The notes beneath the pieces were generated by a model. The model saw nothing but the letters and a program-made list of their open reading frames with translations, was not told where the DNA came from and did no database searches. A stretch of 64,000 bases of DNA. It comes from Hyphomicrobiales bacterium. Its GTDB lineage: Bacteria > Pseudomonadota > Alphaproteobacteria > Rhizobiales > OSC116. The stretch spans positions 49,826 to 113,825 of the forward strand of contig NVUH01000007.1 of assembly GCA_002401855.1 (NCBI GenBank), given 5' to 3'. Position numbers and translations under genes: made by a program. Shown here piece by piece: positions 23,685-40,467 of the stretch. Numbering within the stretch: position 1 is the first letter of the stretch; the number at the start of each line of letters is the position of its first letter.

Positions 23685-23725
23685 TTTTGATAATTATGCG
23701 GGAATAAAATCAAAAAGGACTTATA

Positions 23726-24565
23726 ATGACTTTAACAGCTTTACGCGCTAGCGCATATTTACATCATGTTGCTTTTGAGAGTGATGACCCACAAAAATTA
23801 GCCGAATTTTACAGTCAAACCATGCAAATGGAAGTTGAGAAAATTAATGCCAATGAATGGCGTTGTGAGGGCCCAGATCGCCGTTTTGTGGCTATCAAAG
23901 GCACCGATCGTCAATTGGCCTATGCTGGCCTTGCATGCCGTGATCAACAAGGTGTTGATGAGATATTGGAACGTGCGAAAGCCGAAGGCATTGAAATAGA
24001 AAAAAGCCCATCACCTTATTTTAAACAGGGGGCTTTTGCTGTGCGTGACCCAGATGGTAATTTGATTTGTTTTGGTTTGGCCATTCCGCAAAAAGCTGGC
24101 TTTACAGGCATTCATGGCCCAACCCAACATTTAACTTTTGCAAGCTTTGATGTTGAAGCATTTTCTGACTTTTATCACAATAAATTGGGTTTCTCTATTT
24201 CCGATCGTGTATTGCACGAAAATGGCGAAATGGCCACTTGCTTTACCCGCTCTAACCACGAACATCACACCATTGCATGTTTTAAATCTGACCGCCAAGG
24301 TGTTGATCATCATAGTTATGAGGCGGGTTTGTGGGATAACATTCGCGATTGGTCAGATCATTATGCTGATTTGGACATTCAGCTTATGTGGGGTCCAGGC
24401 CGCCATGGGCCAGGTAATAACTTATTCATTTTCATTGAAGATCCTGACAAAAATTGGATCGAAGTTTCGGCTGAACTTGAAATCATTCACGACCGCCCCG
24501 TTAAAGATTGGCCGCAAGATGCGCGCACCCTTAATCGCTGGGGCAGAGCCATTTTCCGTTCGTAA
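23726..24565 (+). CDS. Two-domain VOC-superfamily extradiol ring-cleavage dioxygenase
   Basis: 279 aa; LHHVAFESDD and HLTFAS...DHHSYEAG...GPGRHGPGNNLFIFIEDPD typical of type I extradiol dioxygenases. Confidence 0.8.
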   Translation: MTLTALRASAYLHHVAFESDDPQKLAEFYSQTMQMEVEKINANEWRCEGPDRRFVAIKGTDRQLAYAGLACRDQQGVDEILERAKAEGIEIEKSPSPYFKQGAFAVRDPDGNLICFGLAIPQKAGFTGIHGPTQHLTFASFDVEAFSDFYHNKLGFSISDRVLHENGEMATCFTRSNHEHHTIACFKSDRQGVDHHSYEAGLWDNIRDWSDHYADLDIQLMWGPGRHGPGNNLFIFIEDPDKNWIEVSAELEIIHDRPVKDWPQDARTLNRWGRAIFRS

Positions 24566-24599
24566 AATAATTTCTAATCATAGACAATCAGGAAAATAA

Positions 24600-25460
24600 A
24601 TGAAATATATTAGTTTTATCCGCTGCGGAAAAGCAGGATTCGGCCTGCTAACCGTGCGCGGCAATGGCCAGCAAGCCATTATTGATTTAACCCATAAGCT
24701 TGGTTCAGATATTGATAATCTGCAGGATGCAATATCTAACCACAAGCTTGAAGATGCTGAAAAGTTTGCCGATGCACCCGCAGATTTCTTCTTAAGCGAT
24801 GTGACATTACTCCCCGTCATTCCCAACCCAAGTAAGATTTTGTGCATTGGCTTAAATTATGAAACCCATCGGGCAGAAACCAAACGTCCCGATGCAAAAT
24901 ATCCAACCATATTCACCCGCTTTGCTGATTCTCAGGTGGCACATGGCCAACCTTTGATCATTCCGCACGTGTCTGAACGTTTTGATTATGAAGGTGAATT
25001 GGCCATCATCATTGCCCAAGGTGGGCGTTATGTCGAGGAAGCTGACGCCATGCAACATGTAGCAGGTTATGCTTGCTATAATGATGCCACGGCGCGTGAT
25101 TGGCAACGTCATACCCATCAATTCACTCCGGGCAAGACCTTTCCCGCCACGGGAGCGTTTGGCCCTTATATGGCAGATGCAAAATCCATTGGCGATTATA
25201 CCAAGCTGAAAATTCAAACGCGCCTTAACGGCAAAATCATGCAAGATGCCGATCTAAGCCAATTGATTTTTTCCATCCCTAAATTGATTGCTTATTGCTC
25301 ATCATTCACGCCGTTAACCGCGGGTGATGTGATCATCACGGGCACCCCAGGCGGTGTTGGTGATAGACGAGAGCCGCCTATCTATATGCAAGCTGGTGAC
25401 GTGGTCGAAGTTGAAATTTCTAAACTCGGAACTTTAAGTAATCCGATTATAGCGGAATGA
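24600..25460 (+). CDS. Fumarylacetoacetate hydrolase (FAH) family protein
   Basis: 286 aa; KILCIGLNY, DYEGELAIII, GDVIITGTPGGVG motifs. Confidence 0.85.
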   Translation: MKYISFIRCGKAGFGLLTVRGNGQQAIIDLTHKLGSDIDNLQDAISNHKLEDAEKFADAPADFFLSDVTLLPVIPNPSKILCIGLNYETHRAETKRPDAKYPTIFTRFADSQVAHGQPLIIPHVSERFDYEGELAIIIAQGGRYVEEADAMQHVAGYACYNDATARDWQRHTHQFTPGKTFPATGAFGPYMADAKSIGDYTKLKIQTRLNGKIMQDADLSQLIFSIPKLIAYCSSFTPLTAGDVIITGTPGGVGDRREPPIYMQAGDVVEVEISKLGTLSNPIIAE

Positions 25461-25466
25461 TAGAAT

Positions 25467-27056
25467 ATGAGTATTGATGAAACTGAAATCCTAATCATTG
25501 GGGCAGGGCCAACGGGTTTGACTCTTGCCAACTTATTAGGCCAAGCGGGCGTGAATGTAATCATTGTTGAGCGCAATAGCTCGACAGTGCAAGAACCACG
25601 CGCCGTTTCGATTGATGATGAATCAATGCGCACCATGCAAGCCATTGGCTTGGATGCCGAGATTCTGAAAATTGTTGCTCGTGGTTATGGTTCTCGTTAT
25701 TTGGGACCAAATGGCAAATGCTTTGCATCGGTAGAGCCTGTTTCGCGCGAATATGGCTTTGACAAACGCAACGCCTTTCAACAACCAGAGCTTGAGGATA
25801 TATTGCGCAAAGGGCTTAAACGTTTTGCCAATGTTGAAACGCGGTTCGGTTGCAACATGCAAAGCTTTGCGCAAGATGATACAGGTGTGACCGCAAAAGT
25901 AGTTTCGACACAGCATGGTGAACAATCTATCAAAGCCCAGTATATGGTGGCTTGCGATGGAGGCCGTTCACCCACTCGTATTGAATTGGATATTTTACTG
26001 GATGGCTCAACATTCTCCGAGCAATGGCTCATTGTCGATATTTTCAACACTAAAAACCATTTCCGCCATACCGAAGTGTTTTGTAACCCCAAGTTGCCTT
26101 GCATTTCATTGCCGGGGCCAGAGGGCATAAGGCGTTATGAATTTATGATTCAAAACGGCCAAAGCGAGCAAGAAGCTGAACAGGAAGACAATGTACGTCA
26201 ATTACTTTCGCAAGTTGGTGAGGATAAAGACGCTGAATTGCGCCGCGTGAAAGTTTACACCTTCCATGGCCGTGTGGCGGTAAAATGGAAACAAGGTCGT
26301 ATATTTCTGGCGGGAGATGCCGCACATTTAACCCCACCATTTGCCGGGCAGGGCATGAATAGTGGTCTGCGAGATGTGCATAATTTGGCTTGGAAACTGG
26401 CGTTGACATTGTGTTCAAATGACAGTGGCAAGATAAAAAATCTACTCGATTCTTATCAGCAAGAGAGGTCGCCTCACGCTTGGAATATGATTGAAATCGC
26501 GCTGACCATGGGGCGGGTGATGATGCCAACCTCAAAATTGCAAGCAGCATTGGTAAGAGCCGCATTTCGCATCATGAGCATATATCCGCCTGCGCGAGAT
26601 TACATTGCTCAAATGCGTTATAAGCCCAAACCTTTATTTAAAGTGGGTTATCAGCAAGCCGATGGCCGCTCTGTAAAACAGACCATGGTCGGGCGTTTAT
26701 TTTACCAGCCAGAAATTGAGGATATGCACCGCAACCGCATGTTGCTTGATCGCATCATTGGCAATCAACCCTGCTTGTTGGTATTTTCAGAAATGCCCGA
26801 GCAAGTTGTTGATGCAAAGACACGTAAAATATTTGAAGCAAAAAACATCCTCATCATCGGCATCACGCCAGAATGGGTGAACCCGATTGAAGGCGACTTT
26901 CCAATTTACCGAGATGTATCAGGCGAGTTGAGCCATAAGAATTTCATGAGTTACCAAGAGCATACTTTTCTACTTCGGCCAGACCATTATGTTGCGGCGA
27001 TAGAGCCAAATGCGAATATCATCAGCTTAGAGAATATGGCAGATAGGTTGGTTTGA
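25467..27056 (+). CDS. FAD-dependent aromatic-ring monooxygenase (MhpA/PheA-TfdB class)
   Basis: 529 aa; ILIIGAGPTGLTLANLL, GRIFLAGDAAHLTPPFAGQGMNSGLRDVHNLAWKL. Confidence 0.85.
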   Translation: MSIDETEILIIGAGPTGLTLANLLGQAGVNVIIVERNSSTVQEPRAVSIDDESMRTMQAIGLDAEILKIVARGYGSRYLGPNGKCFASVEPVSREYGFDKRNAFQQPELEDILRKGLKRFANVETRFGCNMQSFAQDDTGVTAKVVSTQHGEQSIKAQYMVACDGGRSPTRIELDILLDGSTFSEQWLIVDIFNTKNHFRHTEVFCNPKLPCISLPGPEGIRRYEFMIQNGQSEQEAEQEDNVRQLLSQVGEDKDAELRRVKVYTFHGRVAVKWKQGRIFLAGDAAHLTPPFAGQGMNSGLRDVHNLAWKLALTLCSNDSGKIKNLLDSYQQERSPHAWNMIEIALTMGRVMMPTSKLQAALVRAAFRIMSIYPPARDYIAQMRYKPKPLFKVGYQQADGRSVKQTMVGRLFYQPEIEDMHRNRMLLDRIIGNQPCLLVFSEMPEQVVDAKTRKIFEAKNILIIGITPEWVNPIEGDFPIYRDVSGELSHKNFMSYQEHTFLLRPDHYVAAIEPNANIISLENMADRLV

Positions 27057-27885: not shown

Positions 27886-27975
27886 AAAAATAATATTGCC
27901 CTCATTGCGATGATGTTTGAATAAATTTCATTAAAACTCGAAAATCAGAAAACTTGACAGAAAGTTTGCCTTACG

Positions 27976-28008
27976 TTACTAATACGTATTACTAATACGA
28001 ATTACTAG
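27976..28008. promoter_or_regulatory. Candidate LacI-type operator: 20-bp CG-centred palindrome plus overlapping direct repeats of TTACTAATACG
   Basis: TTACTAATAC|GTATTACTAA (one mismatched pair) at 27976-27995; repeats at 27976, 27989, partial 28002; TTGACA at 27954-27959 upstream. Confidence 0.45.
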
Positions 28009-28021
28009 ATTGTTTAACATA

Positions 28022-29026
28022 ATGAAACCAACTGCCACTCAAAAAGATGTTGCTAGGAAAGCCGGCGTATCGCAGGCCACTGTGTCGCTCGTATTAAATG
28101 GTTCAGGTGGTGGCTCTATTCCAGAATCCACGGTTTTAAAAATTAACCAGGCGATGAAGGAGCTCGGATACTCACCTAATTACATGGCGCGTGCGCTGCG
28201 CACAAATCAAACAATGACACTAGTCTGCGTGGTGCCAGACATTACCAACCCATATTATCCATTATTGGTGCGCGGTGTGCAAACTGTCGCCGAGGCTGCT
28301 GGCTATGACGTGATCACTGTTAACACTGACGGCAAAAAAGACCGTGAACTGCATTACATTAATATGGCGCGACAGGGCCGTGTAGATGGCGTTGTTGGGG
28401 TGTTTTTCGGCTTGACCATTCGCGACATGTTGCCATTTGTCGAGGTGGGCATACCAATTGTGCGACTAGAAGCGTCAGTAAAAACTGGCGGCTCCATTGC
28501 CGTCGATGATGTATTTGTCGATAACTGTCAGGCTGCTGAAGATTTAACTTCATTTCTGATGTCAAAAGGCCATCGTTCCATCGCTATGATTGCAGGTCGA
28601 GATGGACCGCAGTCGGTACGCGTGGATGGTTATCTCAAAGCACTTCAAGCCAAGGGTTTTAAAGCACGTATTCAACTAGACGATGCCTTCACCGAAGAAG
28701 GCGGCGCACGTGCGGCCACAGTTTTGCTCGATGAGGGCGAGCGCCCCACTGCGATCATTGCCGCCAATGATTTGATGGCAATTGGCGCAATGCACACTTT
28801 GCTAGACCGCAATGTGTCCATTCCAGATGAAATTGCGATTGCAGGGTTTGATGACATTCCATCATCACGTTTGGTATCGCCAGCGCTAACTACAGTGACC
28901 CAGTTCCAACATAATCTAGGTGCAGAGGCTGCACGAACCTTAATTAAGAGACTCAACGGTTTAGTAACCGGGGGAGGACGAGTGACAGAACTACCCTACA
29001 AAATAATAGAAAGATCATCTACTTAA
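28022..29026 (+). CDS. LacI-family transcriptional regulator
   Basis: MKPTATQKDVARKAGVSQATVSLVLNG HTH; sugar-binding domain; ATG 28022 preferred to TTG 28010. Confidence 0.85.
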   Translation: MKPTATQKDVARKAGVSQATVSLVLNGSGGGSIPESTVLKINQAMKELGYSPNYMARALRTNQTMTLVCVVPDITNPYYPLLVRGVQTVAEAAGYDVITVNTDGKKDRELHYINMARQGRVDGVVGVFFGLTIRDMLPFVEVGIPIVRLEASVKTGGSIAVDDVFVDNCQAAEDLTSFLMSKGHRSIAMIAGRDGPQSVRVDGYLKALQAKGFKARIQLDDAFTEEGGARAATVLLDEGERPTAIIAANDLMAIGAMHTLLDRNVSIPDEIAIAGFDDIPSSRLVSPALTTVTQFQHNLGAEAARTLIKRLNGLVTGGGRVTELPYKIIERSST

Positions 29027-29048
29027 ACGTTCATTAATGGAGGAAATA

Positions 29049-30359
29049 ATGACACATAAACTAACACTTATAGCAGGCGCTATTGCTGCTTTCACAACGG
29101 CTCAAGCCGCTTTGGCGCAAGAGCCAGTTACTTGGTGGTACGAGGCTGCAAACCCGGAGCAGCAGGCTGCGCTAGGCGAATTTATGATAGATAAATTTAA
29201 CGCCGCAAACCCTGAACATGTATTGACTATTGACTATCGCGGTAACGAGTTGGATCGGCAATTACGTATAGCATTGCTTTCAGGCACTGGGCCTGATGTG
29301 GTGAACACCCCTGGCCCTTCATTTGTGGCGACCATGGCGCGCGCTGGCCAACTGATGCCACTAGATGACATCGCGGCTGAAATGGGTTGGAATGACCGCA
29401 TTTTGCCATTTTTTATGGATTTAGGCCGATTTGACGGCCATCTTTACGCTTTGCCCAAAACCTATGAAACACTGGGCTTGTTTTACAACAAAGCGCTGTT
29501 TACCGAAAACGGCTGGACACCACCAACAACATTGGCGGAATTGGACACTTTGGCAGAGGCGATGATGGCAAAAGACATCATACCTTTTGGTTCAGGTAAT
29601 TCAGGTTGGCGCCCTTCCAACGAATGGCAGGTGTCTATTGCGTTAAATTCCATTGCTGGGCCAGACAATGTACAAAAGGCATTGAAGGGCGAATTACCAT
29701 GGACGGCCGAACCGTTTGTTAAAGCGATTAATGCGCTCGACGGATGGTGGGACAAAGGTTATTTCGGACCTGATTACTTTTCGCTTAATGGTGAACAAGT
29801 TATGGCAAATTTGGCCGATGGCACTGCAGGTATGGCGCCAACAGGCACTTGGAACTTTGGCATCGTACCTGAGTATTTTAAAGGCAGGTTCGAAGATGTC
29901 GGCTTTGTTGGCTTTCCCAGCGGCGAAGGTGTCTCTTATCCGATCTATGCGTTGGGTATAGGCTCGACTTTCTCCATCTCTGCCAAGGCACAGAACCCAG
30001 AAGGTGCCGCGAAAGTGATTGACCAGGTGTTTTCCGAAAACTTCTACACAGACATCAACAATGTTTGGCAGGGTGAATGGAATGTGCCGTTACGTGACCT
30101 CAGTAATTTGAAGCTTAGCGATGATGTGATCCCTCTTTACTCAAGCGCGATGGCAAATTTAGCATCTGCGGTGAATGAAAACCAATATGGTTATACAACT
30201 TGGACATTCATGCCCCCTGCAACAAATTCCTATCTTGTTAGTGGCATTGAAGAAGTTTGGTTGGACTCTCTCACCACCGAAGATTTCTTAGCTGAAATGG
30301 ATAAAATATTCCAACAGGAATTGGCTGAAGGCAAAGTTGCTGAAATTCCAGCACGCTAA
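29049..30359 (+). CDS. Sugar ABC transporter substrate-binding protein (family 1 extracellular solute-binding)
   Basis: Signal peptide MTHKLTLIAGAIAAFTTAQAALA; GGAGG SD before ATG 29049. Confidence 0.85.
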   Translation: MTHKLTLIAGAIAAFTTAQAALAQEPVTWWYEAANPEQQAALGEFMIDKFNAANPEHVLTIDYRGNELDRQLRIALLSGTGPDVVNTPGPSFVATMARAGQLMPLDDIAAEMGWNDRILPFFMDLGRFDGHLYALPKTYETLGLFYNKALFTENGWTPPTTLAELDTLAEAMMAKDIIPFGSGNSGWRPSNEWQVSIALNSIAGPDNVQKALKGELPWTAEPFVKAINALDGWWDKGYFGPDYFSLNGEQVMANLADGTAGMAPTGTWNFGIVPEYFKGRFEDVGFVGFPSGEGVSYPIYALGIGSTFSISAKAQNPEGAAKVIDQVFSENFYTDINNVWQGEWNVPLRDLSNLKLSDDVIPLYSSAMANLASAVNENQYGYTTWTFMPPATNSYLVSGIEEVWLDSLTTEDFLAEMDKIFQQELAEGKVAEIPAR

Positions 30360-30424
30360 GCCAAACAAACTGAACGGGGCGGCGGTAAAGTCGCCGCCCA
30401 ATTTCTCAAAGCCATGGGGTTTAC

Positions 30425-31270
30425 ATGCATCGTTTATTCGTCATTCCGACACTGTTAATCAATGTGTCGATCATTCTTATACCTGCTTTGTTGACGGTCG
30501 TTTTGGCCTTCTATCGGTGGGATGGTATTTCGGATCCAACTTTTATTGGGTTTGCTAATTTTGAAAAATTATGGGGTGATCGCATTTTTTGGAAGGCACT
30601 CAAAAATAATTTTATTTGGACCGCTATGTTCCTGATATTCCCGATCGCGACGGGTCTTTTGGCGGCGTCATTATTGTTGATCATTCGGCGGGGGCGGACA
30701 CTCTTGCAGGTCATATATTTTCTACCGATGATCATTGCAACGGTGATCACCGCACGGATTTGGCAGGGTATGATTTATAACCCGCAAAACGGTATTTTGG
30801 CAATGCTTAACCAATATGGATTTGAACTTAGAGACCCGCTTTCGCAGACTTCGACAGCTTTATTTGGCGTCGCTGTGGTTGATCTTTGGCATTGGTGGGG
30901 GTTTATGGCGGTGATTTTCTTTGCCGCGATGCGCCAAGTGTCGCAAGAACAGATCGAAAGCGCCCGTATAGAAGGGGCTAACTATTTTCAACTCATGCGG
31001 TGGGTGTTGATTCCAGCGATCAAGCCAACCATTGCCTTGATGATGATTATGACTGTAATTTGGTCGTTCTTAGTTTTTGATTTTATTTACATCATGACGC
31101 AAGGCGGGCCCGCTTTTTCAAGCGAAGTGCTGAGCACGATGGCCTATCGCAAAGCTTTCTATGAACTTGATGTTGGGTACGCCGCCACTTCGGCGCTTGT
31201 TATAAGCCTGTTTGGCCTGACCGCGGCATTTTTCTACATAAGAATCCAAAATAAGGAGGGTGTCGAATGA
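30425..31270 (+). CDS. Sugar ABC permease (MalF/UgpA-like)
   Basis: 281-aa membrane protein with EAA-like ESARIEGANYFQLMRWVLIPAIKP. Confidence 0.85.
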   Translation: MHRLFVIPTLLINVSIILIPALLTVVLAFYRWDGISDPTFIGFANFEKLWGDRIFWKALKNNFIWTAMFLIFPIATGLLAASLLLIIRRGRTLLQVIYFLPMIIATVITARIWQGMIYNPQNGILAMLNQYGFELRDPLSQTSTALFGVAVVDLWHWWGFMAVIFFAAMRQVSQEQIESARIEGANYFQLMRWVLIPAIKPTIALMMIMTVIWSFLVFDFIYIMTQGGPAFSSEVLSTMAYRKAFYELDVGYAATSALVISLFGLTAAFFYIRIQNKEGVE

Positions 31271-32100
31271 ATTTAGTTGAAAGTCGAACGACGACGACCA
31301 TCATATATGTAATTTTGGGTGTTGCTGCCTTTACAGCTCTGTTTCCAATCGCGCTAATGGTCTTAAACTCACTCAAGACAACACCAGAAATTGCTGCCAG
31401 CCCACTGGCACTACCATTGGTGCCTCATTGGGATAATTATGCCCACGCATGGCAGGGCGCAAAATTCAGTCAAACGTTTATTAATTCCGCCGTGCTGATG
31501 TTAACGACAATCTTTTTGGTGCTATCAACCGGTTCATTGACCGCTTACGTACTGGCGCGTAAGAAAATCAAAACGTGGAAACTGGTCACTGCATATCTTC
31601 TTGCGACGACAACCGCGCCGATCCAACTTTTCCTATTTCCGCTTTATTTTGGGTTTGCCAAGTTAGGCCTTATCAATAATGTCTTCGCCGTCTCGGTGGT
31701 TTATTGCGCGCTGTTTTCGCCATTCTCAATCATGTTATTGCGCACCTATTTTCTTGCCGTGCCAAAAGAGCTAGAGGAGGCGGCACTGGTCGACGGCGCA
31801 ACACCGTGGCAAGTGTTTTCCAAAGTTTATTTGCCAATGGTTTGGCCTGGCCTGTTGACCGTGGCGCTCATCGTGGGGCTTTACACATGGAACGAATTCT
31901 TGATTGCCACCACGTTTCTTCAGGCATCTGAATCGCGAACCGCAGTTGTGTCCTACTTCCTGCTCTCTGGGCAATATTCCACTGATTGGGGTGATCTTAT
32001 GGCTGGTGCCATGCTGGTCACTGCCCCCATCGTTATTCTATTCATCTTCCTGCAACGTCACTTCATCGAAGGTATGACTGGCGGGTCAGTCAAAGGTTAA
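31267..32100 (+). CDS. Sugar ABC permease (MalG/UgpE-like)
   Basis: 277 aa; EEAALVDGATPWQVFSKVYLPMVWPG EAA loop; 4-nt overlap with upstream gene. Confidence 0.85.
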   Translation: MNLVESRTTTTIIYVILGVAAFTALFPIALMVLNSLKTTPEIAASPLALPLVPHWDNYAHAWQGAKFSQTFINSAVLMLTTIFLVLSTGSLTAYVLARKKIKTWKLVTAYLLATTTAPIQLFLFPLYFGFAKLGLINNVFAVSVVYCALFSPFSIMLLRTYFLAVPKELEEAALVDGATPWQVFSKVYLPMVWPGLLTVALIVGLYTWNEFLIATTFLQASESRTAVVSYFLLSGQYSTDWGDLMAGAMLVTAPIVILFIFLQRHFIEGMTGGSVKG

Positions 32101-32112
32101 AGAGGTATCAAA

Positions 32113-34182
32113 ATGTCACTTCCAAATGATTATCTGGAGCGCGTCTATGCAGGCGTTCTCGGCAAACTAATCGGTGTTTATCTGGGCCGCCCTTTTGAAG
32201 GATGGACCTATGATAAGATTATGAAAGAATTGGGGCCGATTGAATATTATGTTCACGAAAAACTGGGCGACCCTCTGGTCATTACAGATGATGACGTGGC
32301 CGGTACCTTCACTTTCATACGGGCGCTAGAGGATTATGACCTGTCAGAAAACCTATCGGCAGAAGATATTGGTAAATTATGGTTGAACTATATCGTTGAA
32401 AAGCGCGCAATCCTTTGGTGGGGCGGTAATGGCAATTCGACGGAGCATACAGCGTGGCTGAACCTGAAGCGCGGCATACCCGCACCTGCAAGCGGCTCAA
32501 TTGAAACCAATGGTCTCACTGTTGCCGAACAAATCGGCGCACAAATATTCATTGACGGCTGGGCGCTTGTCGCCCCCGGCAAGCCCGCGTTAGCTGCAAA
32601 ACTTGCGAAACAAGCGGGCAGCGTGAGCCACGATGGCGAAAGCGTTTATGCAGGAATGTTATGGGCGGCAATGGAAGCCGAGGCTTTTTTATCGGCTGAC
32701 ATTGACCACTTGCTAGACACTGGGTTGGCTCAAATTCCCGCAAGCAGCAAGATTGCCAAATTGATAGCTGACATTCGCGGTTGGCATGCTCAAATGCCAG
32801 ACTGGCGTGACTGTCGGCAAAAAATTCAGGACAATTATGGTTATGATAAATACAGCGGAAACTGCCACGTTATGCCTAACCATGCGTTGATGATCATGAC
32901 GATGCTATATGCGCCAGATGATTTTTCAAAAGGTCAGATGATCGTCAACACTTCGGGTTGGGATACAGATTGCAACGCGGGCAATGTTGGCTGCTTGCAT
33001 GGCATTATGCTCGGTCTTGAGGGCTTGAATATGGGCCCAGATTGGCGTGGACCGATTGCAGATCGAATGTTGATTTCCTCGGCTGACGGTGGTAACTCGA
33101 TTAACGACGCCGTCCGCATGGCGTATTATATTGCCAACCTTGGGCGGCAGTTGGATGGGCAGCCCGCACTTGATGCCCCCAAAGACGGCGCGCAGTTCCA
33201 TTTTTCCTTATCAGGGTCAGTACAAGGCTTCCAATTGGTCAGTGGTGAGGGCGCAGTGTCACCAAGCAACGACGCCCTTGAGATTAGTAGCAATGGCGGC
33301 GCGGTGGTGGCAACAACGCCTATGTTTGCGCCGCTGGATGTCATTCGGATGCGTACTTATGACCTGATGGCAACGCCGTTGGTGTATTCTGGTCAAAAGG
33401 TTTCAGCATGCGTCACCGCCTCTTTGCAAAACGACAAGCCGATTACAGTTGCATTACGGATGCGCCACTATGGCGCAAATGATATTTTGGTGGATTGCAC
33501 CAGCCCAACACGAATGTTGGAGCCGGGTGAAGAAGCAATGCTGGATTGGATTTTGCCAGACACAGGCGCCCAACCTATCGCTGAGATGGGACTGATGATT
33601 GATAGCCGAGATGGCGGAACGGTCATGCTAGATTGTATGGGGTGGTCAGGCACCCCAGAATTGACATTGACCAAACCTAAAGAGGAAGGCGATTTTTGGC
33701 ACCGCGCTTGGGTCAATGGAGTGGATGTATTTTCCAAACATTTTCCTGAGAGTTTTCATATTTCGCATGATCGCGGCGAGGGGGTGATTTTACATGGCAC
33801 ACGCGATTGGGTTGATTACACCGTCGAGGCTGATTTGGTTGTTCATCTTGGCTCTAGTGCTGGTGTCATTGCACGCGCCCAAGGGCTGCGTCGCTATTAT
33901 GCTGCACGGGTCACACGTGATGGCAAATTCGAATTGGTACGGCAGTATGATGACACATTTGAGGTTTTAGCTTCGGCTGAAATATCTATGGCGTTTGACG
34001 AGACAATACCCATCACCCTTACGGTCAATGGACTAAATCTGAGCGCCGTAACGGGGGACACGTCCTTATCAGTTACAGACACTTCAGATGTTGCCATTTC
34101 TTGTGGTGCCATCGGCCTAATGGTTGCAGATGGCGCGGCATCAGCGAATACAGTGCGGGTTTCTGCACCAAAAGGAGCCTAA
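32113..34182 (+). CDS. ADP-ribosylglycohydrolase-family domain fused to an approximately 350-aa C-terminal beta-sandwich-like region
   Basis: N-terminal about 340 aa: YAGVLGKLIGVYLGRPFEGW, TDDDVAGT, GWDTDCNAGNVGCLHGIMLG (ARH metal-site motifs); the C-terminal half (HGTRDWVDYTVEADLVV...YYAARVTRDGKFELV) looks jelly-roll/LamG-like by eye only. Confidence 0.75.
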   Translation: MSLPNDYLERVYAGVLGKLIGVYLGRPFEGWTYDKIMKELGPIEYYVHEKLGDPLVITDDDVAGTFTFIRALEDYDLSENLSAEDIGKLWLNYIVEKRAILWWGGNGNSTEHTAWLNLKRGIPAPASGSIETNGLTVAEQIGAQIFIDGWALVAPGKPALAAKLAKQAGSVSHDGESVYAGMLWAAMEAEAFLSADIDHLLDTGLAQIPASSKIAKLIADIRGWHAQMPDWRDCRQKIQDNYGYDKYSGNCHVMPNHALMIMTMLYAPDDFSKGQMIVNTSGWDTDCNAGNVGCLHGIMLGLEGLNMGPDWRGPIADRMLISSADGGNSINDAVRMAYYIANLGRQLDGQPALDAPKDGAQFHFSLSGSVQGFQLVSGEGAVSPSNDALEISSNGGAVVATTPMFAPLDVIRMRTYDLMATPLVYSGQKVSACVTASLQNDKPITVALRMRHYGANDILVDCTSPTRMLEPGEEAMLDWILPDTGAQPIAEMGLMIDSRDGGTVMLDCMGWSGTPELTLTKPKEEGDFWHRAWVNGVDVFSKHFPESFHISHDRGEGVILHGTRDWVDYTVEADLVVHLGSSAGVIARAQGLRRYYAARVTRDGKFELVRQYDDTFEVLASAEISMAFDETIPITLTVNGLNLSAVTGDTSLSVTDTSDVAISCGAIGLMVADGAASANTVRVSAPKGA

Positions 34183-34185
34183 ATA

Positions 34186-35250
34186 ATGGCACAAGTGAAT
34201 ATTCAAAATGTTGAGAAATCTTTTGGCGAAACCGAAGTCCTTAAAGATATATCGCTTTCAATTGAAGATGGCGAATTTCTGGTTCTTGTGGGGCCATCTG
34301 GTTGCGGAAAATCGACCTTGTTGCGGATGATCGCAGGGCTAGAAGACATCACCAGCGGTGACATTTCTATCGGCGACAAAGTGGTCAACAATCTGCCGCC
34401 AAAAGAGCGTGACATTTCCATGGTCTTTCAAAATTATGCACTCTACCCGCATTTGACCGTTGCCCAAAATATGGGGTTCTCTTTAATGTTGGCGCATGCA
34501 CCAAAGGCAGAACAGAAACGCCGTGTGCAAGAAGTTGCAGTTATTCTTGGTTTGACAGATTTGCTGGAACGTAAGCCAAAACAATTATCGGGAGGCCAAA
34601 GGCAGCGTGTTGCCATGGGCCGCGCGATCGTGCGTGATCCAAAAGTATATTTATTTGATGAACCTTTATCAAACCTTGATGCGAAGTTACGCGTGGCAAT
34701 GCGCGCCGAAATTAAATTGATGCATCAAAAAATCAAAACCACCTCAGTATATGTGACCCATGATCAGGTCGAAGCGATGACCATGGCCAACCGCATCGCA
34801 GTGATGAATGCTGGCCGTATTGAACAGGTTGGCCAACCGCTCGAAATATATGACAATCCAAAAAATGTGTTTGTCGCCGGGTTTATTGGCACGCCATCAA
34901 TGAACCTATTATCGGCAACGGTGGATCTTTCAAGAAATACGCCGCGTGCAGTATTGACCCCAGATTTGTCCTTGCCCTTGCCACTGAACACGACTTTGAA
35001 AGATGGCCAAAAAATCACCTACGGAATTCGCCCCGAACATTTAAATATCTCTTCTAAGGGAGCGCCTGCAAAAGTGAATGTGATTGAACCGACGGGGTCT
35101 GAGACCCATATAATGTTGAGTTTTGGCGAAACTTCGCTGGTTGTAGTCGCGCGTGATCGGCTGGCTTTGTCGCCAGAAGAAATGGTAAATGTTGCGCCAG
35201 ATTTGTCCCGAGTTATGATTTTTGATTTGGATTCTGGCGAACGCCTATGA
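34186..35250 (+). CDS. Sugar ABC ATP-binding protein (MalK/UgpC-like)
   Basis: GPSGCGKST, LSGGQRQRVAMGRA, YLFDEPLSNLD; C-terminal TOBE-like region. Confidence 0.9.
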   Translation: MAQVNIQNVEKSFGETEVLKDISLSIEDGEFLVLVGPSGCGKSTLLRMIAGLEDITSGDISIGDKVVNNLPPKERDISMVFQNYALYPHLTVAQNMGFSLMLAHAPKAEQKRRVQEVAVILGLTDLLERKPKQLSGGQRQRVAMGRAIVRDPKVYLFDEPLSNLDAKLRVAMRAEIKLMHQKIKTTSVYVTHDQVEAMTMANRIAVMNAGRIEQVGQPLEIYDNPKNVFVAGFIGTPSMNLLSATVDLSRNTPRAVLTPDLSLPLPLNTTLKDGQKITYGIRPEHLNISSKGAPAKVNVIEPTGSETHIMLSFGETSLVVVARDRLALSPEEMVNVAPDLSRVMIFDLDSGERL

Positions 35251-36119
35251 GCATCTTAAATATAGGCTCGCTCAATCTTGATATAGTTTATAGAGTTTCT
35301 TGTTTGCCACTAGCTGGGGAAACCGTGAAAGCTCTGAATAAGTCGATTTATTTGGGCGGCAAGGGGTTAAATCAATCAGTTGCCATTGCCATGGCTGGTG
35401 GTGATGTGAAGCATTTCGGCGTGATATCTAGTGATGACGAATGGATAATAAGCAAATTACTCAAGTGCGGGGTGGATTGCAATTTTATTAGCAAAACCCA
35501 ACAAGCAGACACGGGGCAAGCGATTATTTTTGTGGCCGAAAATGGTGATAATTCAATTGTGCTTTTATCTGGTGCAAACCACTTTTTGAAAGAAAGTGAG
35601 TTGGAGGCAGCGCTTGATGAATTTTCAAACAGTGACTGGCTTCTGACCCAAAATGAAACCAATGCCGCTGAATATGGCATTGAATTAGCCAGAAATCGTG
35701 GCCTGTCTATTGCTTATTCGGCGGCTCCATTTGATCTTCAAAAATTGTTGCCTATTTTACCCAAGATAGATTTATTGTCAGTCAATGAAATTGAATATGA
35801 GCAATTGATCGCCGCTATTGGGGACATTCATTGCCTTCCTAAAAATCAAGCTTTGTTAATTACCAAGGGAGCTAGTGGTGCAGAATATATTAAAGATGAC
35901 GCTCGTATAAATGTGGATGCTTATGCAGCGAATGCAGTTGACACAACAGGTGCTGGTGATACATTTTTAGGGTATTTTTTAGCTATGTTAGATGTTGGAA
36001 AAGAAATTGAAGATTGCATGAAATTTGCGTCGATAGCTGCTGGTTTACAAGTGATGAAACAAGGCGCATCGAATTCTATTCCTTCAATTGAACAGGTTAA
36101 AATTCATTTTGAAGGCTAG
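35247..36119 (+). CDS. rbsK: Ribokinase (PfkB family)
   Basis: GGKGLNQSVAIAMAGG and DTTGAGDTFLGYFLA motifs; 4-nt overlap with ATPase gene. Confidence 0.7.
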   Translation: MSILNIGSLNLDIVYRVSCLPLAGETVKALNKSIYLGGKGLNQSVAIAMAGGDVKHFGVISSDDEWIISKLLKCGVDCNFISKTQQADTGQAIIFVAENGDNSIVLLSGANHFLKESELEAALDEFSNSDWLLTQNETNAAEYGIELARNRGLSIAYSAAPFDLQKLLPILPKIDLLSVNEIEYEQLIAAIGDIHCLPKNQALLITKGASGAEYIKDDARINVDAYAANAVDTTGAGDTFLGYFLAMLDVGKEIEDCMKFASIAAGLQVMKQGASNSIPSIEQVKIHFEG

Positions 36120-36235: not shown

Positions 36236-37174
36236 TCAATTTTGTTTGCACCAAGATTGATACCAGTTTTGGAAAAGAGCAAATTGTTTTTCTAAATAGT
36301 TTCGTTGGCTATCTGACAAAATATCAGTTTCATTGAAGTGCAATGCATATTCTTCATTGCCTTGTAATACCATTAAATGTTTGTAATAGAGTACTAAGTC
36401 AGCGCCTTCATCAAAGGAAGATAAGACACCTAAAGCATTTTCTAATTCAAGTGCTTTTGAGCGGGCTTTTGCATCGCCTGTTGCCGCCTTTTGGCACAAG
36501 GCCACTAGATGTAAAACTTCTTTAGGTAGTGCGTTACCAATTCCAGTTATAGCACCGCTAGCGCCGCAATTTACAAACCCGTGATATACTGCGGTATCTA
36601 CACCGATCATAAGGGTAACATCAACGTCGCGGCTGGTAATTCTTTCAGCGGCATAACGCAGGTCAGCATGACCGCCAAATTCTTTAAAGCCAACTAGATT
36701 AGGATGTTGGGAACGAATATCAAAAAACAAATCTTCGCGCGTTGCAAAGCCGTAATAGGGACTATTGTAAATAACAGAATCCAAATCTGGTGCTGCAGAA
36801 AGTACGCTAGAGAAATGCGCCCGCTGGGCAGCCACAGATGTACCGCGTGACAATACCCGAGGAATGACCATCAAGCCTTGTGCCCCAACTTTTTGTGCAT
36901 GCGCAGCATGTTCAACCGCTTTCGCCGTGTTGACTGCGCCCGTTCCAACAATAACCGGAACACCAGCTTTTACCAACTGGGCCACGCCTTCTTGGCGCTC
37001 TTCGTCAGTTAGTAAGGGCCAGTCGCCCATTGAACCACAATATACAACAGCCGACATTCCGTCGCTGATTAATTCTTTGCCCTTACGCACGAGTGCTGCA
37101 AAATCGGGGCGTCGGTCAGCTGTGCAAGGTGTCATTAGCGCAGGCATGCAACCAGAGAATATGTTAGAAGTCAT
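36236..37174 (-). CDS. DHDPS/N-acetylneuraminate-lyase-family aldolase or dehydratase
   Basis: MPALMTPC...VYCGSMGDWPLLTDEERQ...; AAGGA SD before ATG 37174 (longer ORF-track start 37279 rejected). Confidence 0.8.
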   Translation of the reverse strand: MTSNIFSGCMPALMTPCTADRRPDFAALVRKGKELISDGMSAVVYCGSMGDWPLLTDEERQEGVAQLVKAGVPVIVGTGAVNTAKAVEHAAHAQKVGAQGLMVIPRVLSRGTSVAAQRAHFSSVLSAAPDLDSVIYNSPYYGFATREDLFFDIRSQHPNLVGFKEFGGHADLRYAAERITSRDVDVTLMIGVDTAVYHGFVNCGASGAITGIGNALPKEVLHLVALCQKAATGDAKARSKALELENALGVLSSFDEGADLVLYYKHLMVLQGNEEYALHFNETDILSDSQRNYLEKQFALFQNWYQSWCKQN

Positions 37175-37293
37175 GTGTTTCCTTAATTTTTTAATTTCAG
37201 ACAAAGCCGTAAAACAGATTTGCCATATTTGATTTATCTGCCATTGGGCAGGAGTTTTACTGTTAATAATGGCTTTCAATATGAGGCGGTTAA

Positions 37294-38610
37294 TTATAGC
37301 CCGACTAATAGAGTTGGTAAATATGTCGCCACTCCAGGAATAAATGCAACAACAATCAGCACTAGCAATTGTATCATAACAAATGGAATGACGCCGCGAT
37401 ACATATGTTTATAGGTTAAGTTAGGCGGCGCAATTGAACGAAGATAAAAAATGGATGGTGCCATGGGCGGTGTGAGATAGGATGTTTGAATAACCACCAT
37501 AACCATAACAGTAAACCATATTTGATTGATTCCAGCGGCATTAATAATAGGAATAAAAATCGGAATGAATATTAATACGATGGATATCCAATCGAGGACG
37601 AAACCGGCGATAAAAACAATAGCCAAAAGAAATAAAATTAACCCAACTTCGCCAAACTCTGCACTGACCACAAAATCTCTCACCATCTGACCGCCACCAG
37701 ATAGTGCAAATACGCTGGTAAACATGGTGCCGCCAACCACGATGAGCATGATCATGGATGTTATACGAACTGTAACGGCCAATGCTGATTTTAGTGTTTT
37801 CCATTTTAGCTCTTTAAATGCAGCCGCTAACAGCAGCGCGCCAACGGCGCCGACAGCAGCGGCTTCAGTTGGAGAGGCCGCACCGACAAGCAGTGAACCT
37901 AGAACCGCAAAAATAAGAATTAAAGGCGGCAATAGTGCCTTCACTGTGATAAGGAGTTTTGTCTTCAGCGGAATGTCATTGTCTTCCTTTGAAATGGGAG
38001 GGGCATCTTGGGGTTTTAAATATGCTCTTAACAAAATATACCCAACAAAAAATACTACCATTAACAAACCTGGAAGCATCGTGGCGGCAAATAATTGGCC
38101 AATCGACAATTGAGCCATTGAGGCATAAACCACGACCACTATTGAAGGTGGGATTATGGTGCCCAATGAGCCGCCCGCACAAATTGTACCTGCAATGAGA
38201 CTGCCATCATATTTATATTTTTGCATTGCGGGGATTGCCATTAGACCTACCACAATTTCAACCGCACCAACAACGCCTGAGGCGGCGGCAAAAACAGCGC
38301 ACATTAGAATCGTCGCGATGGCGACACCACCAGGCCAACGGCCAACCCATAATTGTAAAGCTTGGAACAGCCGAAGTGCAATGCCCGTTCGTTCAAGTAT
38401 GGTGCCCATAAAAATAAATAAGGGTATTGCCGCCAAAATAAAGTTTGAGCTGGTTGAAAGAATGGGGCCATAAAGTTGTAAAAATATTAAGTCTCCGAGA
38501 ATTAAATAGCCAAACGAAACAGATATAATAATCAGAGAAAAAGCAACGGGAATACCAAGAAACACAAGTATAAACAGCGCAGGAAATATCACAATTGGAA
38601 TGAAACTCAT
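37294..38610 (-). CDS. dctM: TRAP transporter large permease
   Basis: 438-aa polytopic protein, DctM-like throughout; 4-nt overlap with dctQ. Confidence 0.9.
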   Translation of the reverse strand: MSFIPIVIFPALFILVFLGIPVAFSLIIISVSFGYLILGDLIFLQLYGPILSTSSNFILAAIPLFIFMGTILERTGIALRLFQALQLWVGRWPGGVAIATILMCAVFAAASGVVGAVEIVVGLMAIPAMQKYKYDGSLIAGTICAGGSLGTIIPPSIVVVVYASMAQLSIGQLFAATMLPGLLMVVFFVGYILLRAYLKPQDAPPISKEDNDIPLKTKLLITVKALLPPLILIFAVLGSLLVGAASPTEAAAVGAVGALLLAAAFKELKWKTLKSALAVTVRITSMIMLIVVGGTMFTSVFALSGGGQMVRDFVVSAEFGEVGLILFLLAIVFIAGFVLDWISIVLIFIPIFIPIINAAGINQIWFTVMVMVVIQTSYLTPPMAPSIFYLRSIAPPNLTYKHMYRGVIPFVMIQLLVLIVVAFIPGVATYLPTLLVGL

Positions 38611-39146
38611 TTGAATTCCTCAATAACTTCCAGTTCCCCATGGTGATCGCCGGGGACATTTTGTTTTAATAAATACCTGATGGCTTCAATAAAAAATTGA
38701 ATGGCAAAAGAAAGTAAGCCGATCGCAATAACGCCATAGAATGGCCATACTAATGGTGCCCACGGGCTAACGCTTTCAACCTCGGATGTGATGAATGCTT
38801 TCCATGCCTTTTGGCTCGCCACATAACCAAAAGTTGTAAAAATTGGGCCAAGAATTAGCATGTAGAATATACCGTTGATCCATTGCTGAACGCGCAGACT
38901 GAGTTTTGTTGAAAGAAAATCTATGCGCACATGAGCATCGTTGCGCAGTGTATAAGCGGCGCCTAACAGAAATATAGTTCCATTTAGCATATAGGAAATA
39001 TCAAAGGCCCATAATGTGGGTTGGTTAAACCCGTAGCGAGCAACAACTTCATAAATCATTGATGTTATCAATAAAATTACAATAAATTGAGCAACACCGC
39101 CCAATATGATTGATATTTTGTCTAGAGTGTTCAGTATTTTTTGCAT
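38607..39146 (-). CDS. dctQ: TRAP transporter small permease
   Basis: 4-TM protein; ATG 39146 preferred because TTG 39179 lies inside the hairpin at 39165-39198. Confidence 0.8.
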   Translation of the reverse strand: MQKILNTLDKISIILGGVAQFIVILLITSMIYEVVARYGFNQPTLWAFDISYMLNGTIFLLGAAYTLRNDAHVRIDFLSTKLSLRVQQWINGIFYMLILGPIFTTFGYVASQKAWKAFITSEVESVSPWAPLVWPFYGVIAIGLLSFAIQFFIEAIRYLLKQNVPGDHHGELEVIEEFK

Positions 39147-39164
39147 AAGTTTGGATCCGATTGG

Positions 39165-39198
39165 AACAACCAAATACAATATTCTGTATTTGGTTGTT
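39165..39198 (-). promoter_or_regulatory. Perfect 14-bp-stem hairpin between dctP and dctQ
   Basis: AACAACCAAATACA-ATATTC-TGTATTTGGTTGTT read directly; no U-tract. Confidence 0.5.
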
Positions 39199-39226
39199 TA
39201 AATATCAATGTAGAAATATTTACCGG

Positions 39227-40294
39227 TTATTTATTATCGGTTACTAAATAACCAGAATTTTCTGACCAGTTGGTTTGATATGCAAAATATGAATCCATTA
39301 CTTTTTGCATTGTATCATCACCATTAGCAGATAATTCCTTGGCCTTATTTCTAGCCCATTCGCGGCCAGCCACACGCAATTCTTCAACCACGGCTTTGTC
39401 GAGTTCAATAATTTCAACTTTCGTTTTTTTGTATTCAGCCATGGCATAAACATCGGCATGCCCAAAATGTGCATAGCTTTCGTAAGTTGTTAATTTTGCA
39501 GCTGCTTCAATTTGACGGCGTAATTGTTCTGGTAAGGCATCCCACTTCTCGGCTTTAATCACAACTTCCCACAAAAATGAAGGTTGATGAACTCCGGGGA
39601 GGATGATGTAAGGAGCGACTTCATGAAATCCTTCAGATAAGTTTGCCCCAGGAGTTGACCATTCAATTGCATCCACACCTTTTCTTTGTAATAAAGTATA
39701 TATTTCACCACCCGGCACTACGGTCGGCACGCCTTCATAGTTTTCTTTCACAACCGCAGCCCATGCGCCTGATGTTCTATATTTAAGTCCCTTAAAGTCG
39801 GCGGTTGTTCTAATTTCTACATTTGAATGAGCGAGAATTTCTGACGTTCCGATGCCGACGACTAATGAATGTAAACCCATTTTTTCGCGGCGAAAATCTT
39901 GCAACATTTTTTCTCCACCGCCATTATAAACCCAATGTAAAGTGGCTTCACCGCCCATGCCGCCGGGGAAACTAGCAAATATAGCATTGGTTGGGTCTTG
40001 GTTTACTAGATATGAAGGGGTGGAATGACCTGCATCAACTATGCCATCTTGAACGGCTTCAAAAACTTTAAATGCGGGTACAATGACGCCGGCACCAAAT
40101 GGTTGAATTTTAAGTTTTCCGCTGGTGATTATATCAACATTTGCGGCAAATCTTTCCATAAAGTTTTTGTAAAAGAATGAACCTTCTGATATGGCAGCTG
40201 GCATTCGCCAAGTAATTTCTGCAGATTGCGCGGCGGAAATGGAGCCAATACTTGCCATAAATATGGCTGGCATTAATAAAAATTTTAATTTCAT
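39227..40294 (-). CDS. dctP: TRAP transporter substrate-binding protein
   Basis: 355 aa, signal peptide MKLKFLLMPAIFMASIGSISAAQSA, DctP-family sequence. Confidence 0.9.
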   Translation of the reverse strand: MKLKFLLMPAIFMASIGSISAAQSAEITWRMPAAISEGSFFYKNFMERFAANVDIITSGKLKIQPFGAGVIVPAFKVFEAVQDGIVDAGHSTPSYLVNQDPTNAIFASFPGGMGGEATLHWVYNGGGEKMLQDFRREKMGLHSLVVGIGTSEILAHSNVEIRTTADFKGLKYRTSGAWAAVVKENYEGVPTVVPGGEIYTLLQRKGVDAIEWSTPGANLSEGFHEVAPYIILPGVHQPSFLWEVVIKAEKWDALPEQLRRQIEAAAKLTTYESYAHFGHADVYAMAEYKKTKVEIIELDKAVVEELRVAGREWARNKAKELSANGDDTMQKVMDSYFAYQTNWSENSGYLVTDNK

Positions 40295-40467
40295 AACAGT
40301 ATCCTTTTGATTTATTACTTCAGAATGAGAATGTGGTAATTAAGGTTGCTTTGGTGAGTATTGGTAATACTCATAAATATTTTTTTATCATTAAGCCCCT
40401 TGTTTATTTGGCCAATTGAAGTTTGAATAAACACCATTTATATTGGCTATTCATCAACGCTAGCATA

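Follow-up and report, generated by a model that had tools for sequence, protein, structure and literature searches.

What does a sugar transport operon do with an enzyme of the ADP-ribosylglycohydrolase (ARH) superfamily? The question is raised by a locus in a 64,000-nucleotide (nt) stretch of DNA from a Hyphomicrobiales bacterium (contig NVUH01000007.1 of assembly GCA_002401855.1; the whole stretch is called the window below). Seven co-directional and closely packed open reading frames (ORFs) occupy positions 28010-36119 of its + strand and encode, in this order, a LacI-family repressor, a solute-binding protein, two permeases, a 689-amino-acid (aa) protein in which an ARH domain is fused to a C-terminal extension, an ATPase of the ATP-binding cassette (ABC) class and a ribokinase-like PfkB kinase. 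We put at about even the chance that this is a LacI-repressed uptake-and-cleavage operon for a pentofuranose glycoside or short oligosaccharide, in which the fusion protein would serve as a cytoplasmic metal-dependent pentofuranosidase with ribose as the favoured product. The ARH fold is familiar from enzymes that erase ADP-ribosylation. As an operon the locus is of an ordinary type, but its enzyme is one of a very large, uncharacterised family that combines a distinctive architecture with an intact ARH active site and a carbohydrate-catabolic setting.

In the mechanism that we propose, a glycoside or short oligosaccharide containing a pentofuranose would be captured in the periplasm by the binding protein and then imported. 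Once it is in the cytoplasm, its furanose hydroxyls would be gripped by the ARH two-metal site while a Glu-assisted water hydrolyses the glycosidic bond, and the β-sandwiches of the C-terminal extension would recognise the remainder, an aglycone or a neighbouring sugar, much like the lectin domain of galactocerebrosidase. D-ribose would most likely be released and, where a kinase is present, converted into ribose-5-phosphate; an inducer (substrate or product) would free the repressor. The first-pass annotation of this locus had likewise envisaged import, cleavage and phosphorylation of a riboside. The operon, the ARH site and the kinase type uphold that proposal, but its exclusive focus on ribose needs widening, given the homologues of D-arabinofuranosidases that neighbour the gene elsewhere. 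Three things described below were not part of that annotation: the size of the family, a conserved operator, and the association with D-arabinofuranosidase homologues in ten loci.

An intact ARH active site outside the characterised subgroups

The fusion protein (32113-34182, + strand) is a member of the ARH superfamily by Pfam match, fold and catalytic residues, and it lies outside every characterised subgroup. PF03747 matched residues 14-305 with 176.9 bits (cutoff 26.2; E 9e-52), and Foldseek and profile matches agree with it in placing an ARH-fold catalytic domain at 32113-33150 (residues 1-346, + strand). Both ARH motifs quoted in the first-pass annotation were located, TDDDVAGT at residues 58-65 and GWDTDCNAGNVG at residues 282-293. 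We aligned 77 sequences from three clades, namely the window's own clade, a Chloroflexi-centred clade (~50% identity) and a paralogous subfamily (31-34%), and found E29, D59, D60, D61, D284, T285, D286 and C287 invariant in all 77. A profile that includes the short ARH genes found beside some fusions matched MJ1187 (7.5e-19), ARH3 (2.8e-9) and DraG (1e-8), the matches to ARH3 and DraG being confined to the catalytic motifs. In the profile alignment GxxLGxPxE, TDD and GxDTD(T/S/C) correspond motif to motif with all three proteins: T58-D59-D60-D61 and D284-T285-D286 are aligned with the motifs of the ARH two-metal site, and E29 takes the position of the catalytic Glu. Because these motifs are invariant and aligned to MJ1187, ARH3 and DraG, the site retains its catalytic Glu and its acidic metal ligands intact; the metal-binding residues, whose fate on proper alignment the first-pass annotation had singled out as critical, are thus kept, and its assignment survives.

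The structural model points the same way. AlphaFold2 run on 38 close homologues gave a poor N-terminal half, and the alignment of 77 sequences was used for the final model, which has a predicted local distance difference test score (pLDDT) of 92.8 and a predicted template-modelling score of 0.93. A search of the PDB with the single fusion sequence returned nothing significant. Foldseek comparison of residues 1-~345 of the model with the PDB gave target-normalised template-modelling (TM) scores of 0.72 for MJ1187, 0.73-0.74 for ARH3 and 0.70-0.75 for DraG. The likeness to ARH1, ARH3, DraG and MJ1187 therefore lies in the fold (TM 0.70-0.75), the catalytic Glu and the Asp-rich metal-binding motifs, whereas identity is only 13-16% and the fusion protein differs by its invariant Cys in place of a Thr ligand and by a tandem β-sandwich of ~345 residues. 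Moreover, the setting of its gene is a sugar ABC operon and not protein modification or nitrogen fixation, and no partner transferase is present. The sugar ABC operon, the ribokinase and the glycoside hydrolase (GH) neighbours argue for a probable non-nucleotide substrate over an ADP-ribosyl linkage.

A C-terminal β-sandwich pair that appears tied to the ARH domain

In the AlphaFold2 model the C-terminal half of the protein consists of two β-sandwich domains, in line with the β-sandwich/LamG-like extension first suspected there. One lies at 33190-33672 (~residues 360-520, + strand; pLDDT mostly >90), and the second, which by Foldseek and family profile resembles carbohydrate-binding module (CBM) family 66 and the galactocerebrosidase lectin domain, at 33745-34167 (~residues 545-685, + strand). 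Foldseek matched the extension to CBM66, the galactocerebrosidase lectin domain, galectins and laminin LG domains, and both sandwiches together to tandem galectin, CBM22 and LamG pairs. The second sandwich superposed on the CBM66 of B. subtilis levanase SacC with TM 0.83 and a root-mean-square deviation of 1.8-1.9 Å over ~160 columns, and the family profile matched the same domain at E 7e-4. PF21708, the C-terminal lectin domain of galactocerebrosidase, was reached by one homologue, P0427 (28.4 bits, cutoff 27), while two further homologues scored too low. Invariant positions in this half of the protein include H561, W566, R588, R594, D613 and D656. What is shared with CBM66 and PF21708 is the β-sandwich fold of the last domain; the module of the fusion protein differs in being joined to an ARH-fold domain, not to GH32 or GH59, and in being cytoplasmic.

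A search of 1.84 billion cluster representatives with the last 345 residues as query yielded 846 clusters, 524 of them at E ≤ 1e-10. The best 150 were ~700-aa proteins matching in their C-terminal half, or shorter pieces, and among these 150 of 846 clusters we found neither a free-standing C-terminal module nor a partner domain other than ARH. Matches of 350-420 aa were considered as stand-alone modules and rejected: the pieces examined begin inside the ARH domain or the linker, and are therefore gene fragments. The module thus appears tied to the ARH domain, and such an exclusive pairing is easier to reconcile with a part in recognising the substrate at the active site than with a detachable anchor; on this reading, the β-sandwich pair would act in that recognition.

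A CUT1-type importer with a cytoplasmic enzyme

The ORF list and the Pfam/NCBIfam scans reproduced the gene order, gaps and overlaps that had been described, with seven + strand genes separated, in operon order, by 10, 65, -4, 12, 3 and -4 nt. The LacI-family repressor (28022-29026; PF00356 (HTH_LacI) and Peripla_BP_1/3) has an ORF that opens at TTG 28010, and a start at ATG 28022 (N-terminus MKPTATQKDVA) is more plausible. It is followed by a CUT1-type, periplasmic solute-binding protein (29037-30359; SBP_bac_1/SBP_bac_8) with a Sec signal peptide ending ...AAFTTAQA/ALAQE, by permease 1 (30425-31270) and permease 2 (31267-32100), both BPD_transp_1 and overlapping by 4 nt, and, beyond the fusion gene, by a MalK/UgpC-type ABC ATPase (34186-35250; ABC_tran, OB_MalK and TOBE_2; NF008653 493 bits, cutoff 432). 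The parts that define a CUT1 carbohydrate importer were all found: SBP_bac_1 with a signal peptide, two BPD_transp_1 permeases and a MalK-type ATPase with OB/TOBE domains. The fusion protein has no signal peptide, its N-terminus being the first conserved ARH helix.

A conserved cassette in many bacterial phyla

How widespread is this arrangement? A protein search with the fusion gave at least 7737 matches at E ≤ 0.001, and the names among the matches listed were all 'ADP-ribosylglycohydrolase family protein' or 'hypothetical'; one hypothetical protein, from a Hyphomicrobiales metagenome-assembled genome, is 100% identical to the window protein. In a one-genome-per-species collection, 546 stretches from many phyla encode a relative with the ~700-aa architecture. 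Among the carriers are Rhizobium, Mesorhizobium, Devosia, Kaistia, Pleomorphomonas, Paracoccaceae, Citrobacter, Superficieibacter and Paraburkholderia; others are found in Planctomycetota, Verrucomicrobiota, Anaerolineae, Dictyobacter and Bacillota, as well as in Deinococcus and on an Enterobacter replicon. A full-length paralogue with 34% identity defines another large subfamily, found in Ensifer, Agrobacterium, Devosia and Phyllobacterium, and some Devosia species carry both subfamilies. The Citrobacter orthologue had no blastn match in E. coli genomes. In the literature searched (8 million papers; subscription journals lay outside its coverage) we found no characterisation of the fusion family and no occurrence of the word 'ribofuranosidase'.

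We then compared the window proteins by tblastn with 83 loci (related loci in general carry L numbers below). Gene calls in these loci combine tblastn with called genes, the greedy ORF caller being prone to error in high-GC loci. Permease 2 lies immediately upstream of the fusion in 53 of the 83 loci, nearly all of which also match LacI, the binding protein and permease 1, and the ATPase lies immediately downstream in 46; identities in cassette loci are 65-73% for permease 1 and 58-75% for permease 2. The position of the fusion gene between permease and ATPase genes of one operon, noted at first for the window, is therefore a recurrent one. Given that permease, ATPase and LacI recur together, the conserved unit comprises LacI, the ABC transporter and the ARH fusion.

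Two variants of the cassette were also observed. The paralogous subfamily has an operon (L090, L091, L092 ~11100-14200; L086 8765-14127) of LacI, two permeases, a binding protein, a 400-aa ARH protein and the 700-aa fusion, usually with the ATPase after the latter. Downstream lie, in Ensifer and Devosia, genes for a family-III coenzyme A (CoA)-transferase and an HpcH/CitE-like lyase with overlapping stop and start codons and, on an Agrobacterium plasmid, a ribokinase gene; this content suggests that the paralogous substrate may combine a sugar and a hydroxy-dicarboxylic acid. The link to the CoA-transferase and CitE-like lyase is real, but it occurs only in the paralogous subfamily and was set aside for the window operon. 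In Enterobacter, Citrobacter and Huaxiibacter (L084 7966-12425; L061, L066, L073), a three-gene unit of LacI, ARH fusion and binding protein is present with no permease or ATPase, and in Enterobacter (L084) it is inserted between chiP and glnS, near nag genes. The record of the latter, CP103578.1, is labelled a 517-kb Enterobacter hormaechei plasmid, yet it has glnS, fur, seqA, pgm and nagBACD, and it may be a mis-assigned or hybrid replicon.

A ribokinase-like kinase as accessory gene

The last gene of the operon (35247-36119, + strand) overlaps the ATPase gene by 4 nt and encodes a PfkB kinase whose best NCBIfam match is ribokinase, at 215.2 bits and thus under the cutoff of 299.65 for the ribokinase equivalog TIGR02152. 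Every top PDB match was a ribokinase, and GSLNLD, GGKGLNQ, QNE and DTTGAGD align with the N-x-D, GGKG-NQ, lid E and DT-AGD motifs of ribokinases, so that the original call of a PfkB ribokinase is sustained as ribokinase-like despite the score. The idea that the operon is built around this kinase had to be given up, since it adjoins the fusion in only ~10 of ~90 loci. These loci, however, represent at least five unrelated lineages. The kinase is in or beside the cluster in the window, in L088 (89% identical), in L019 (Devosiaceae), L026 (Shinella) and L085 (Deinococcus), in L094 (a distant lineage, with a 4-bp overlap with the ARH gene) and in L086 (the Agrobacterium paralogue), and it is nearby in L072 and in L009 and L078 from Kaistia. 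For the six kinases scored (window, L019, L026, L085, L086 and L094), ribokinase was the best NCBIfam match (215-291 bits). The kinase is an accessory gene outside the core, recruited repeatedly, and the repeated recruitment of a ribokinase-like kinase is good evidence on the nature of the product. An IU-nucleoside hydrolase gene next to the cassette of L087 and the RbsR, CytR and PurR matches of the window LacI, both described below, also point towards ribose.

Furanoside-processing neighbours in related loci

In ten related loci the neighbours include close homologues of the exo-α/β-D-arabinofuranosidases ExoMA1 (GH172) or ExoMA2 (GH116). Four genomes of soil alphaproteobacteria (L049, L050, L064 and L067) have a GH172 gene immediately upstream of the fusion, and in L037 and L076 one is found nearby; these proteins scored 414 bits against ExoMA1, an exo-α-D-arabinofuranosidase, and 136 bits against the fructofuranosidase αFFase1. 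A GH116 gene adjoins the fusion in L081 (Anaerolineales) and is nearby in L049, L045 and L054 (the last two from Pleomorphomonas), and the proteins of L081, L049 and L054 scored 365-403 bits against ExoMA2, an exo-β-D-arabinofuranosidase, compared with 50-141 bits against β-glucosidases. In L081 a GH43/32-like gene precedes the GH116 and fusion genes, which makes three hydrolase genes in a row. In the 64-kb window itself tblastn found neither GH172 nor GH116; GH183 was not searched for.

Other neighbours vary by lineage. In L087, whose fusion is 81% identical to that of the window, a second CUT1 ABC operon (1-4712, - strand) diverges from the LacI gene and carries an IU-nucleoside hydrolase gene between permease and ATPase, that is, in the slot of the ARH fusion. 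In one Mesorhizobium and two Kaistia genomes (L007, L009 and L078, ~11150-12990) a calcineurin-like metallophosphoesterase of ~580-600 aa follows the fusion at the usual place of the ATPase, which hints that the substrate may be phosphorylated in some lineages. An isochorismatase-family gene lies beside the kinase in L026, and in Paracoccaceae loci the cluster is adjoined by a GH1 gene and a CUT2 transporter. The common thread of these neighbours is glycoside, and especially furanoside, processing. In Deinococcus, two hypothetical neighbours of 370 and 679 aa were considered as relatives of the fusion and rejected as unrelated.

Candidate substrates and rival explanations

In view of the D-arabinofuranosidase homologues in ten loci, the candidate substrate is no longer just a riboside but more broadly a pentofuranoside, possibly one derived from bacterial cell-envelope glycans, and the content of the related loci suggests D-pentofuranosyl glycans of bacterial envelopes as one possible source. 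Several observations weigh against our reading of the operon as a pentofuranosidase system with ribose as favoured product: i) the one systematic change in the active site is at a usual metal ligand, where Thr is replaced by Cys (C287) in every fusion protein; ii) Pfam gave no match at E<10 in the C-terminal 383 residues of the window protein, in the first and the last sandwich alike, and the lectin-like domains are only presumed to touch the active site; iii) the closest solved relatives of the binding protein (E ~1e-26 to 1e-24) bind chitobiose and xylobiose, not ribosides; iv) the kinase is missing from ~90% of the loci examined, and all six scored kinases are under the ribokinase equivalog cutoff (the five besides that of the window at 267-291 bits); v) the D-arabinofuranosidase-like neighbours favour D-arabinose over ribose, and in ARH3 structures the metal site binds the cis-2,3-diol of ADP-ribose, a diol that arabinose does not have; vi) the literature searched held no biochemical or genetic data on any family member.

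Arabinose is the product to be considered beside ribose: the enzyme might be a D-arabinofuranosidase, or might remove another residue from D-arabinan fragments, scavenging actinobacterial arabinogalactan or lipoarabinomannan, with the kinases acting on D-arabinose or a derivative. The ExoMA1-like GH172 and ExoMA2-like GH116 neighbours speak for this, as does the slight shortfall of all six scored PfkB neighbours from the ribokinase cutoff, and a published D-arabinan locus shares the logic of an ABC importer combined with intracellular exo-enzymes (PMC10509167). In that system, however, ExoMA1, ExoMA2 and the GH183 endo-arabinanases already suffice for complete D-arabinan breakdown. The window lacks GH172 and GH116, and most cassette loci have none of GH172, GH116 and GH183; the window kinase keeps the ribose-binding motifs, the operons contain no pentose isomerase, and an ARH metal site suited to a cis-diol would poorly suit arabinofuranose, which is without one. 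We hold this alternative to be unlikely. Somewhat less likely again, in our estimate, is that the operon serves a nucleoside of modified or otherwise unusual kind (for example nicotinamide riboside, α-ribazole or a modified nucleoside of RNA) that resists ordinary nucleoside hydrolases and whose base would be recognised by the β-sandwiches. N-glycosidic ribosyl bonds are cut by ARH1 and DraG, the regulators nearest to the window LacI are RbsR, CytR, PurR and UriR, and the IU-nucleoside hydrolase in the neighbouring operon of L087 and the pairing of isochorismatase and ribokinase in L026 fit such a substrate. Nucleoside hydrolases and ARH genes are also mixed in ribose loci of Bacteroidetes (bioRxiv 10.1101/574913). 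Lectin/CBM-like domains with GH172, GH116 and GH43-like neighbours are nevertheless a better match to a sugar aglycone, and the cassette has no conserved base-salvage or deaminase genes. Known nucleoside ABC importers, moreover, have binding proteins of the BMP type, not of the CUT1 type.

The complete ARH catalytic signature and fold would also be compatible with a true ADP-ribose-type hydrolase, acting on imported ADP-ribose, O-acetyl-ADP-ribose, α-NAD (nicotinamide adenine dinucleotide) or a phosphoribosyl conjugate, or removing ADP-ribose from a protein and thereby regulating the transporter; the metallophosphoesterase that follows the fusion in three loci could be placed in such a pathway, as could the isochorismatase-family gene of L026, which could be nicotinamidase-like. 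Here the product would already be phosphorylated, which makes a ribokinase pointless, and CUT1 systems with MalK-type ATPases normally transport neutral sugars. No locus has an ADP-ribosyltransferase partner, the PADLOC defence-system models had no match, the ARH3/DraG profile match stops at the catalytic motifs, and the neighbours are glycoside hydrolases; we regard this as very unlikely, and as the least probable of the readings considered.

A broader claim, which we advance tentatively and as somewhat short of even, concerns the ~700-aa family as a whole. Present in many bacterial phyla, it would constitute a metal-dependent glycoside hydrolase family that is new and unclassified, with the first ARH-fold enzymes of carbohydrate catabolism to act on free non-nucleotide pentofuranosides and in effect the missing dedicated D-ribofuranosidase; its two deep subfamilies would differ in aglycone specificity, the second feeding an organic acid to the CoA-transferase and CitE-like lyase. 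If the pentofuranosidase reading is true, the ARH fold extends to ordinary carbohydrate catabolism and the furanosidase repertoire gains a metal-dependent mechanism. The family, being common in rhizobia, Devosia, Paracoccaceae, some Enterobacteriaceae, Deinococcus and Chloroflexi, would then mark a nutrient used by many soil and water bacteria, for which the binding protein, the repressor with its conserved operator, the catalytic residues and the confident structural model are handles. The D-arabinofuranosidase-homologue link further suggests a route by which Gram-negative soil bacteria might recycle actinobacterial cell-wall sugars.

Comparison with known systems

Does the operon belong to a system already described? 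The uridine operon uriR-rbsK1-uriT-uriH of Corynebacterium glutamicum unites a LacI-type repressor, a ribokinase, a transporter and a ribosyl hydrolase, and in it, too, a riboside is cut and the ribose then phosphorylated; its hydrolase, however, is an IU-nucleoside hydrolase and its transporter a secondary carrier. The closest working parallel is found in the Rus loci of Bacteroidetes, which hold one or more ribokinases, a transporter, a regulator (sometimes LacI) and variable ribose-liberating enzymes including ADP-ribosylglycohydrolases and nucleoside hydrolases, the ARH genes being described only as predicted ADP-ribosylglycohydrolases and with no lectin-like fusion reported (bioRxiv 10.1101/574913). 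The gene logic is shared, and natural substrates are likewise not established there. On the other hand, Rus loci have SusC/D outer-membrane machinery with a permease, and ribokinase belongs to their core, whereas the window operon has a CUT1 ABC transporter and an accessory ribokinase; no SusC/D-type genes were found in the window operon, which is thus not a Rus member.

In the D-arabinan locus of Microbacterium arabinogalactanolyticum, a CUT1 ABC importer takes in oligosaccharides that the signal-less ExoMA1 and ExoMA2 finish intracellularly (PMC10509167). The importer combined with intracellular exo-furanosidases is the point of likeness, and homologues of its GH172 and GH116 enzymes adjoin the ARH fusion in ten related loci, but no ARH gene figures in its description, and an isomerase and a kinase serve as its downstream enzymes in place of a ribokinase-like PfkB. 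The D-arabinan locus is a neighbour in some genomes and not the family that contains the window operon.

The first-pass annotation had also pointed to the yegTUV genes of E. coli, where a transporter, an ARH-family protein and a PfkB kinase are likewise encoded in one operon. These genes, with the regulator GgaR/YegW, are still without clear function (PMC10819704, 2024), and their annotation remains 'putative' only, so that their uncharacterised status was correctly stated. The relation is one of analogy, however: YegU is 17% identical (hhalign probability 97%) and has no C-terminal module, YegV is 23% identical and not ribokinase-like, the single-gene transporter YegT stands in place of a binding-protein-dependent ABC system, and the regulator is of the GntR instead of the LacI family. 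On these identities and the different transporter type, orthology was rejected.

Predicted operator, promoter and hairpin

Directly upstream of the LacI gene lies a putative promoter with two tandem LacI-type operators (27954-28007, + strand). The -35 hexamer TTGACA is at 27954-27959, and 20 nt 3' of it begins a pair of inverted repeats, recognised by reading the sequence: operator copy 1, TAATACGTATTA, at 27980-27991 and copy 2, TAATACGAATTA, at 27993-28004 (both + strand). At least 50 related loci, ranging from Rhizobium to Citrobacter, have the consensus T[GAT]ATACGTAT[CAT]A 10-45 bp ahead of LacI, in one to three copies per locus spaced by 13 or 21 bp. About 85 of 100 matches to the motif in 1.84 Mb of loci fall just upstream of the LacI gene, and in L069 and L074, where the transporter genes are divergent, the motif lies in the shared intergenic region. 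The operator is a palindrome with a central CG, and the protein combines HTH_LacI with a periplasmic-binding-protein-like effector domain, as LacI-family members do; the predicted operator is typical of LacI and indicates a probably dedicated, autoregulated repressor. The best NCBIfam matches of this repressor were RbsR, CcpA, CytR and PurR, every one below cutoff, and the UriR model matched weakly (122 bits, cutoff 550).

The promoter is a call that we infer from the -35 hexamer and the position of the operators; the -10 element is weak, and a generic promoter scan gave no excess over the shuffled expectation. The operator copies fall within a tandem direct repeat of 13 bp at 27977-28006 (TACTAATACGTAT / TACTAATACGAAT / TACTAG), and the 13-bp spacing is common to many orthologous loci, another group of loci having 21 bp. 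A GC-rich hairpin with a 9-bp stem (30377-30399, + strand) lies in the 65-nt gap 3' of the binding-protein gene. Its minimum free energy is -23 kcal/mol over a 73-nt stretch, with a z-score of -1.66, and it may, on this slender signal, be a partial terminator or an mRNA stabiliser that perhaps raises the binding protein over the rest of the operon.

Genomic surroundings

The flanking genes are unrelated to the operon, which therefore ends at the boundaries given above. Upstream, at 22279-27056, an IclR regulator (- strand) is followed by a two-domain glyoxalase/dioxygenase, a hydrolase of the fumarylacetoacetate hydrolase (FAA) family and a flavin adenine dinucleotide (FAD)-dependent monooxygenase (+ strand), and the set resembles a cluster for aromatic degradation of the hydroxybenzoate/gentisate type. 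Downstream, on the opposite strand (36236-41406), a tripartite ATP-independent periplasmic (TRAP) transporter (DctP, DctQ and DctM) and a lyase of the dihydrodipicolinate synthase (DHDPS) family lie beside a GntR/FCD regulator, and are probably an uptake unit for an acid sugar or hydroxy acid. In the relative L088 the operon is likewise trailed by a DHDPS gene and a GntR gene. A megablast of the fusion gene against plasmids gave no match. A transposase with an rve integrase core lies at 19202-20077, ~8 kb upstream of the operon, and the G+C content of the operon (0.44-0.50) exceeds that of its immediate flanks (0.41-0.42); from these two features, the operon may have been acquired by transfer.

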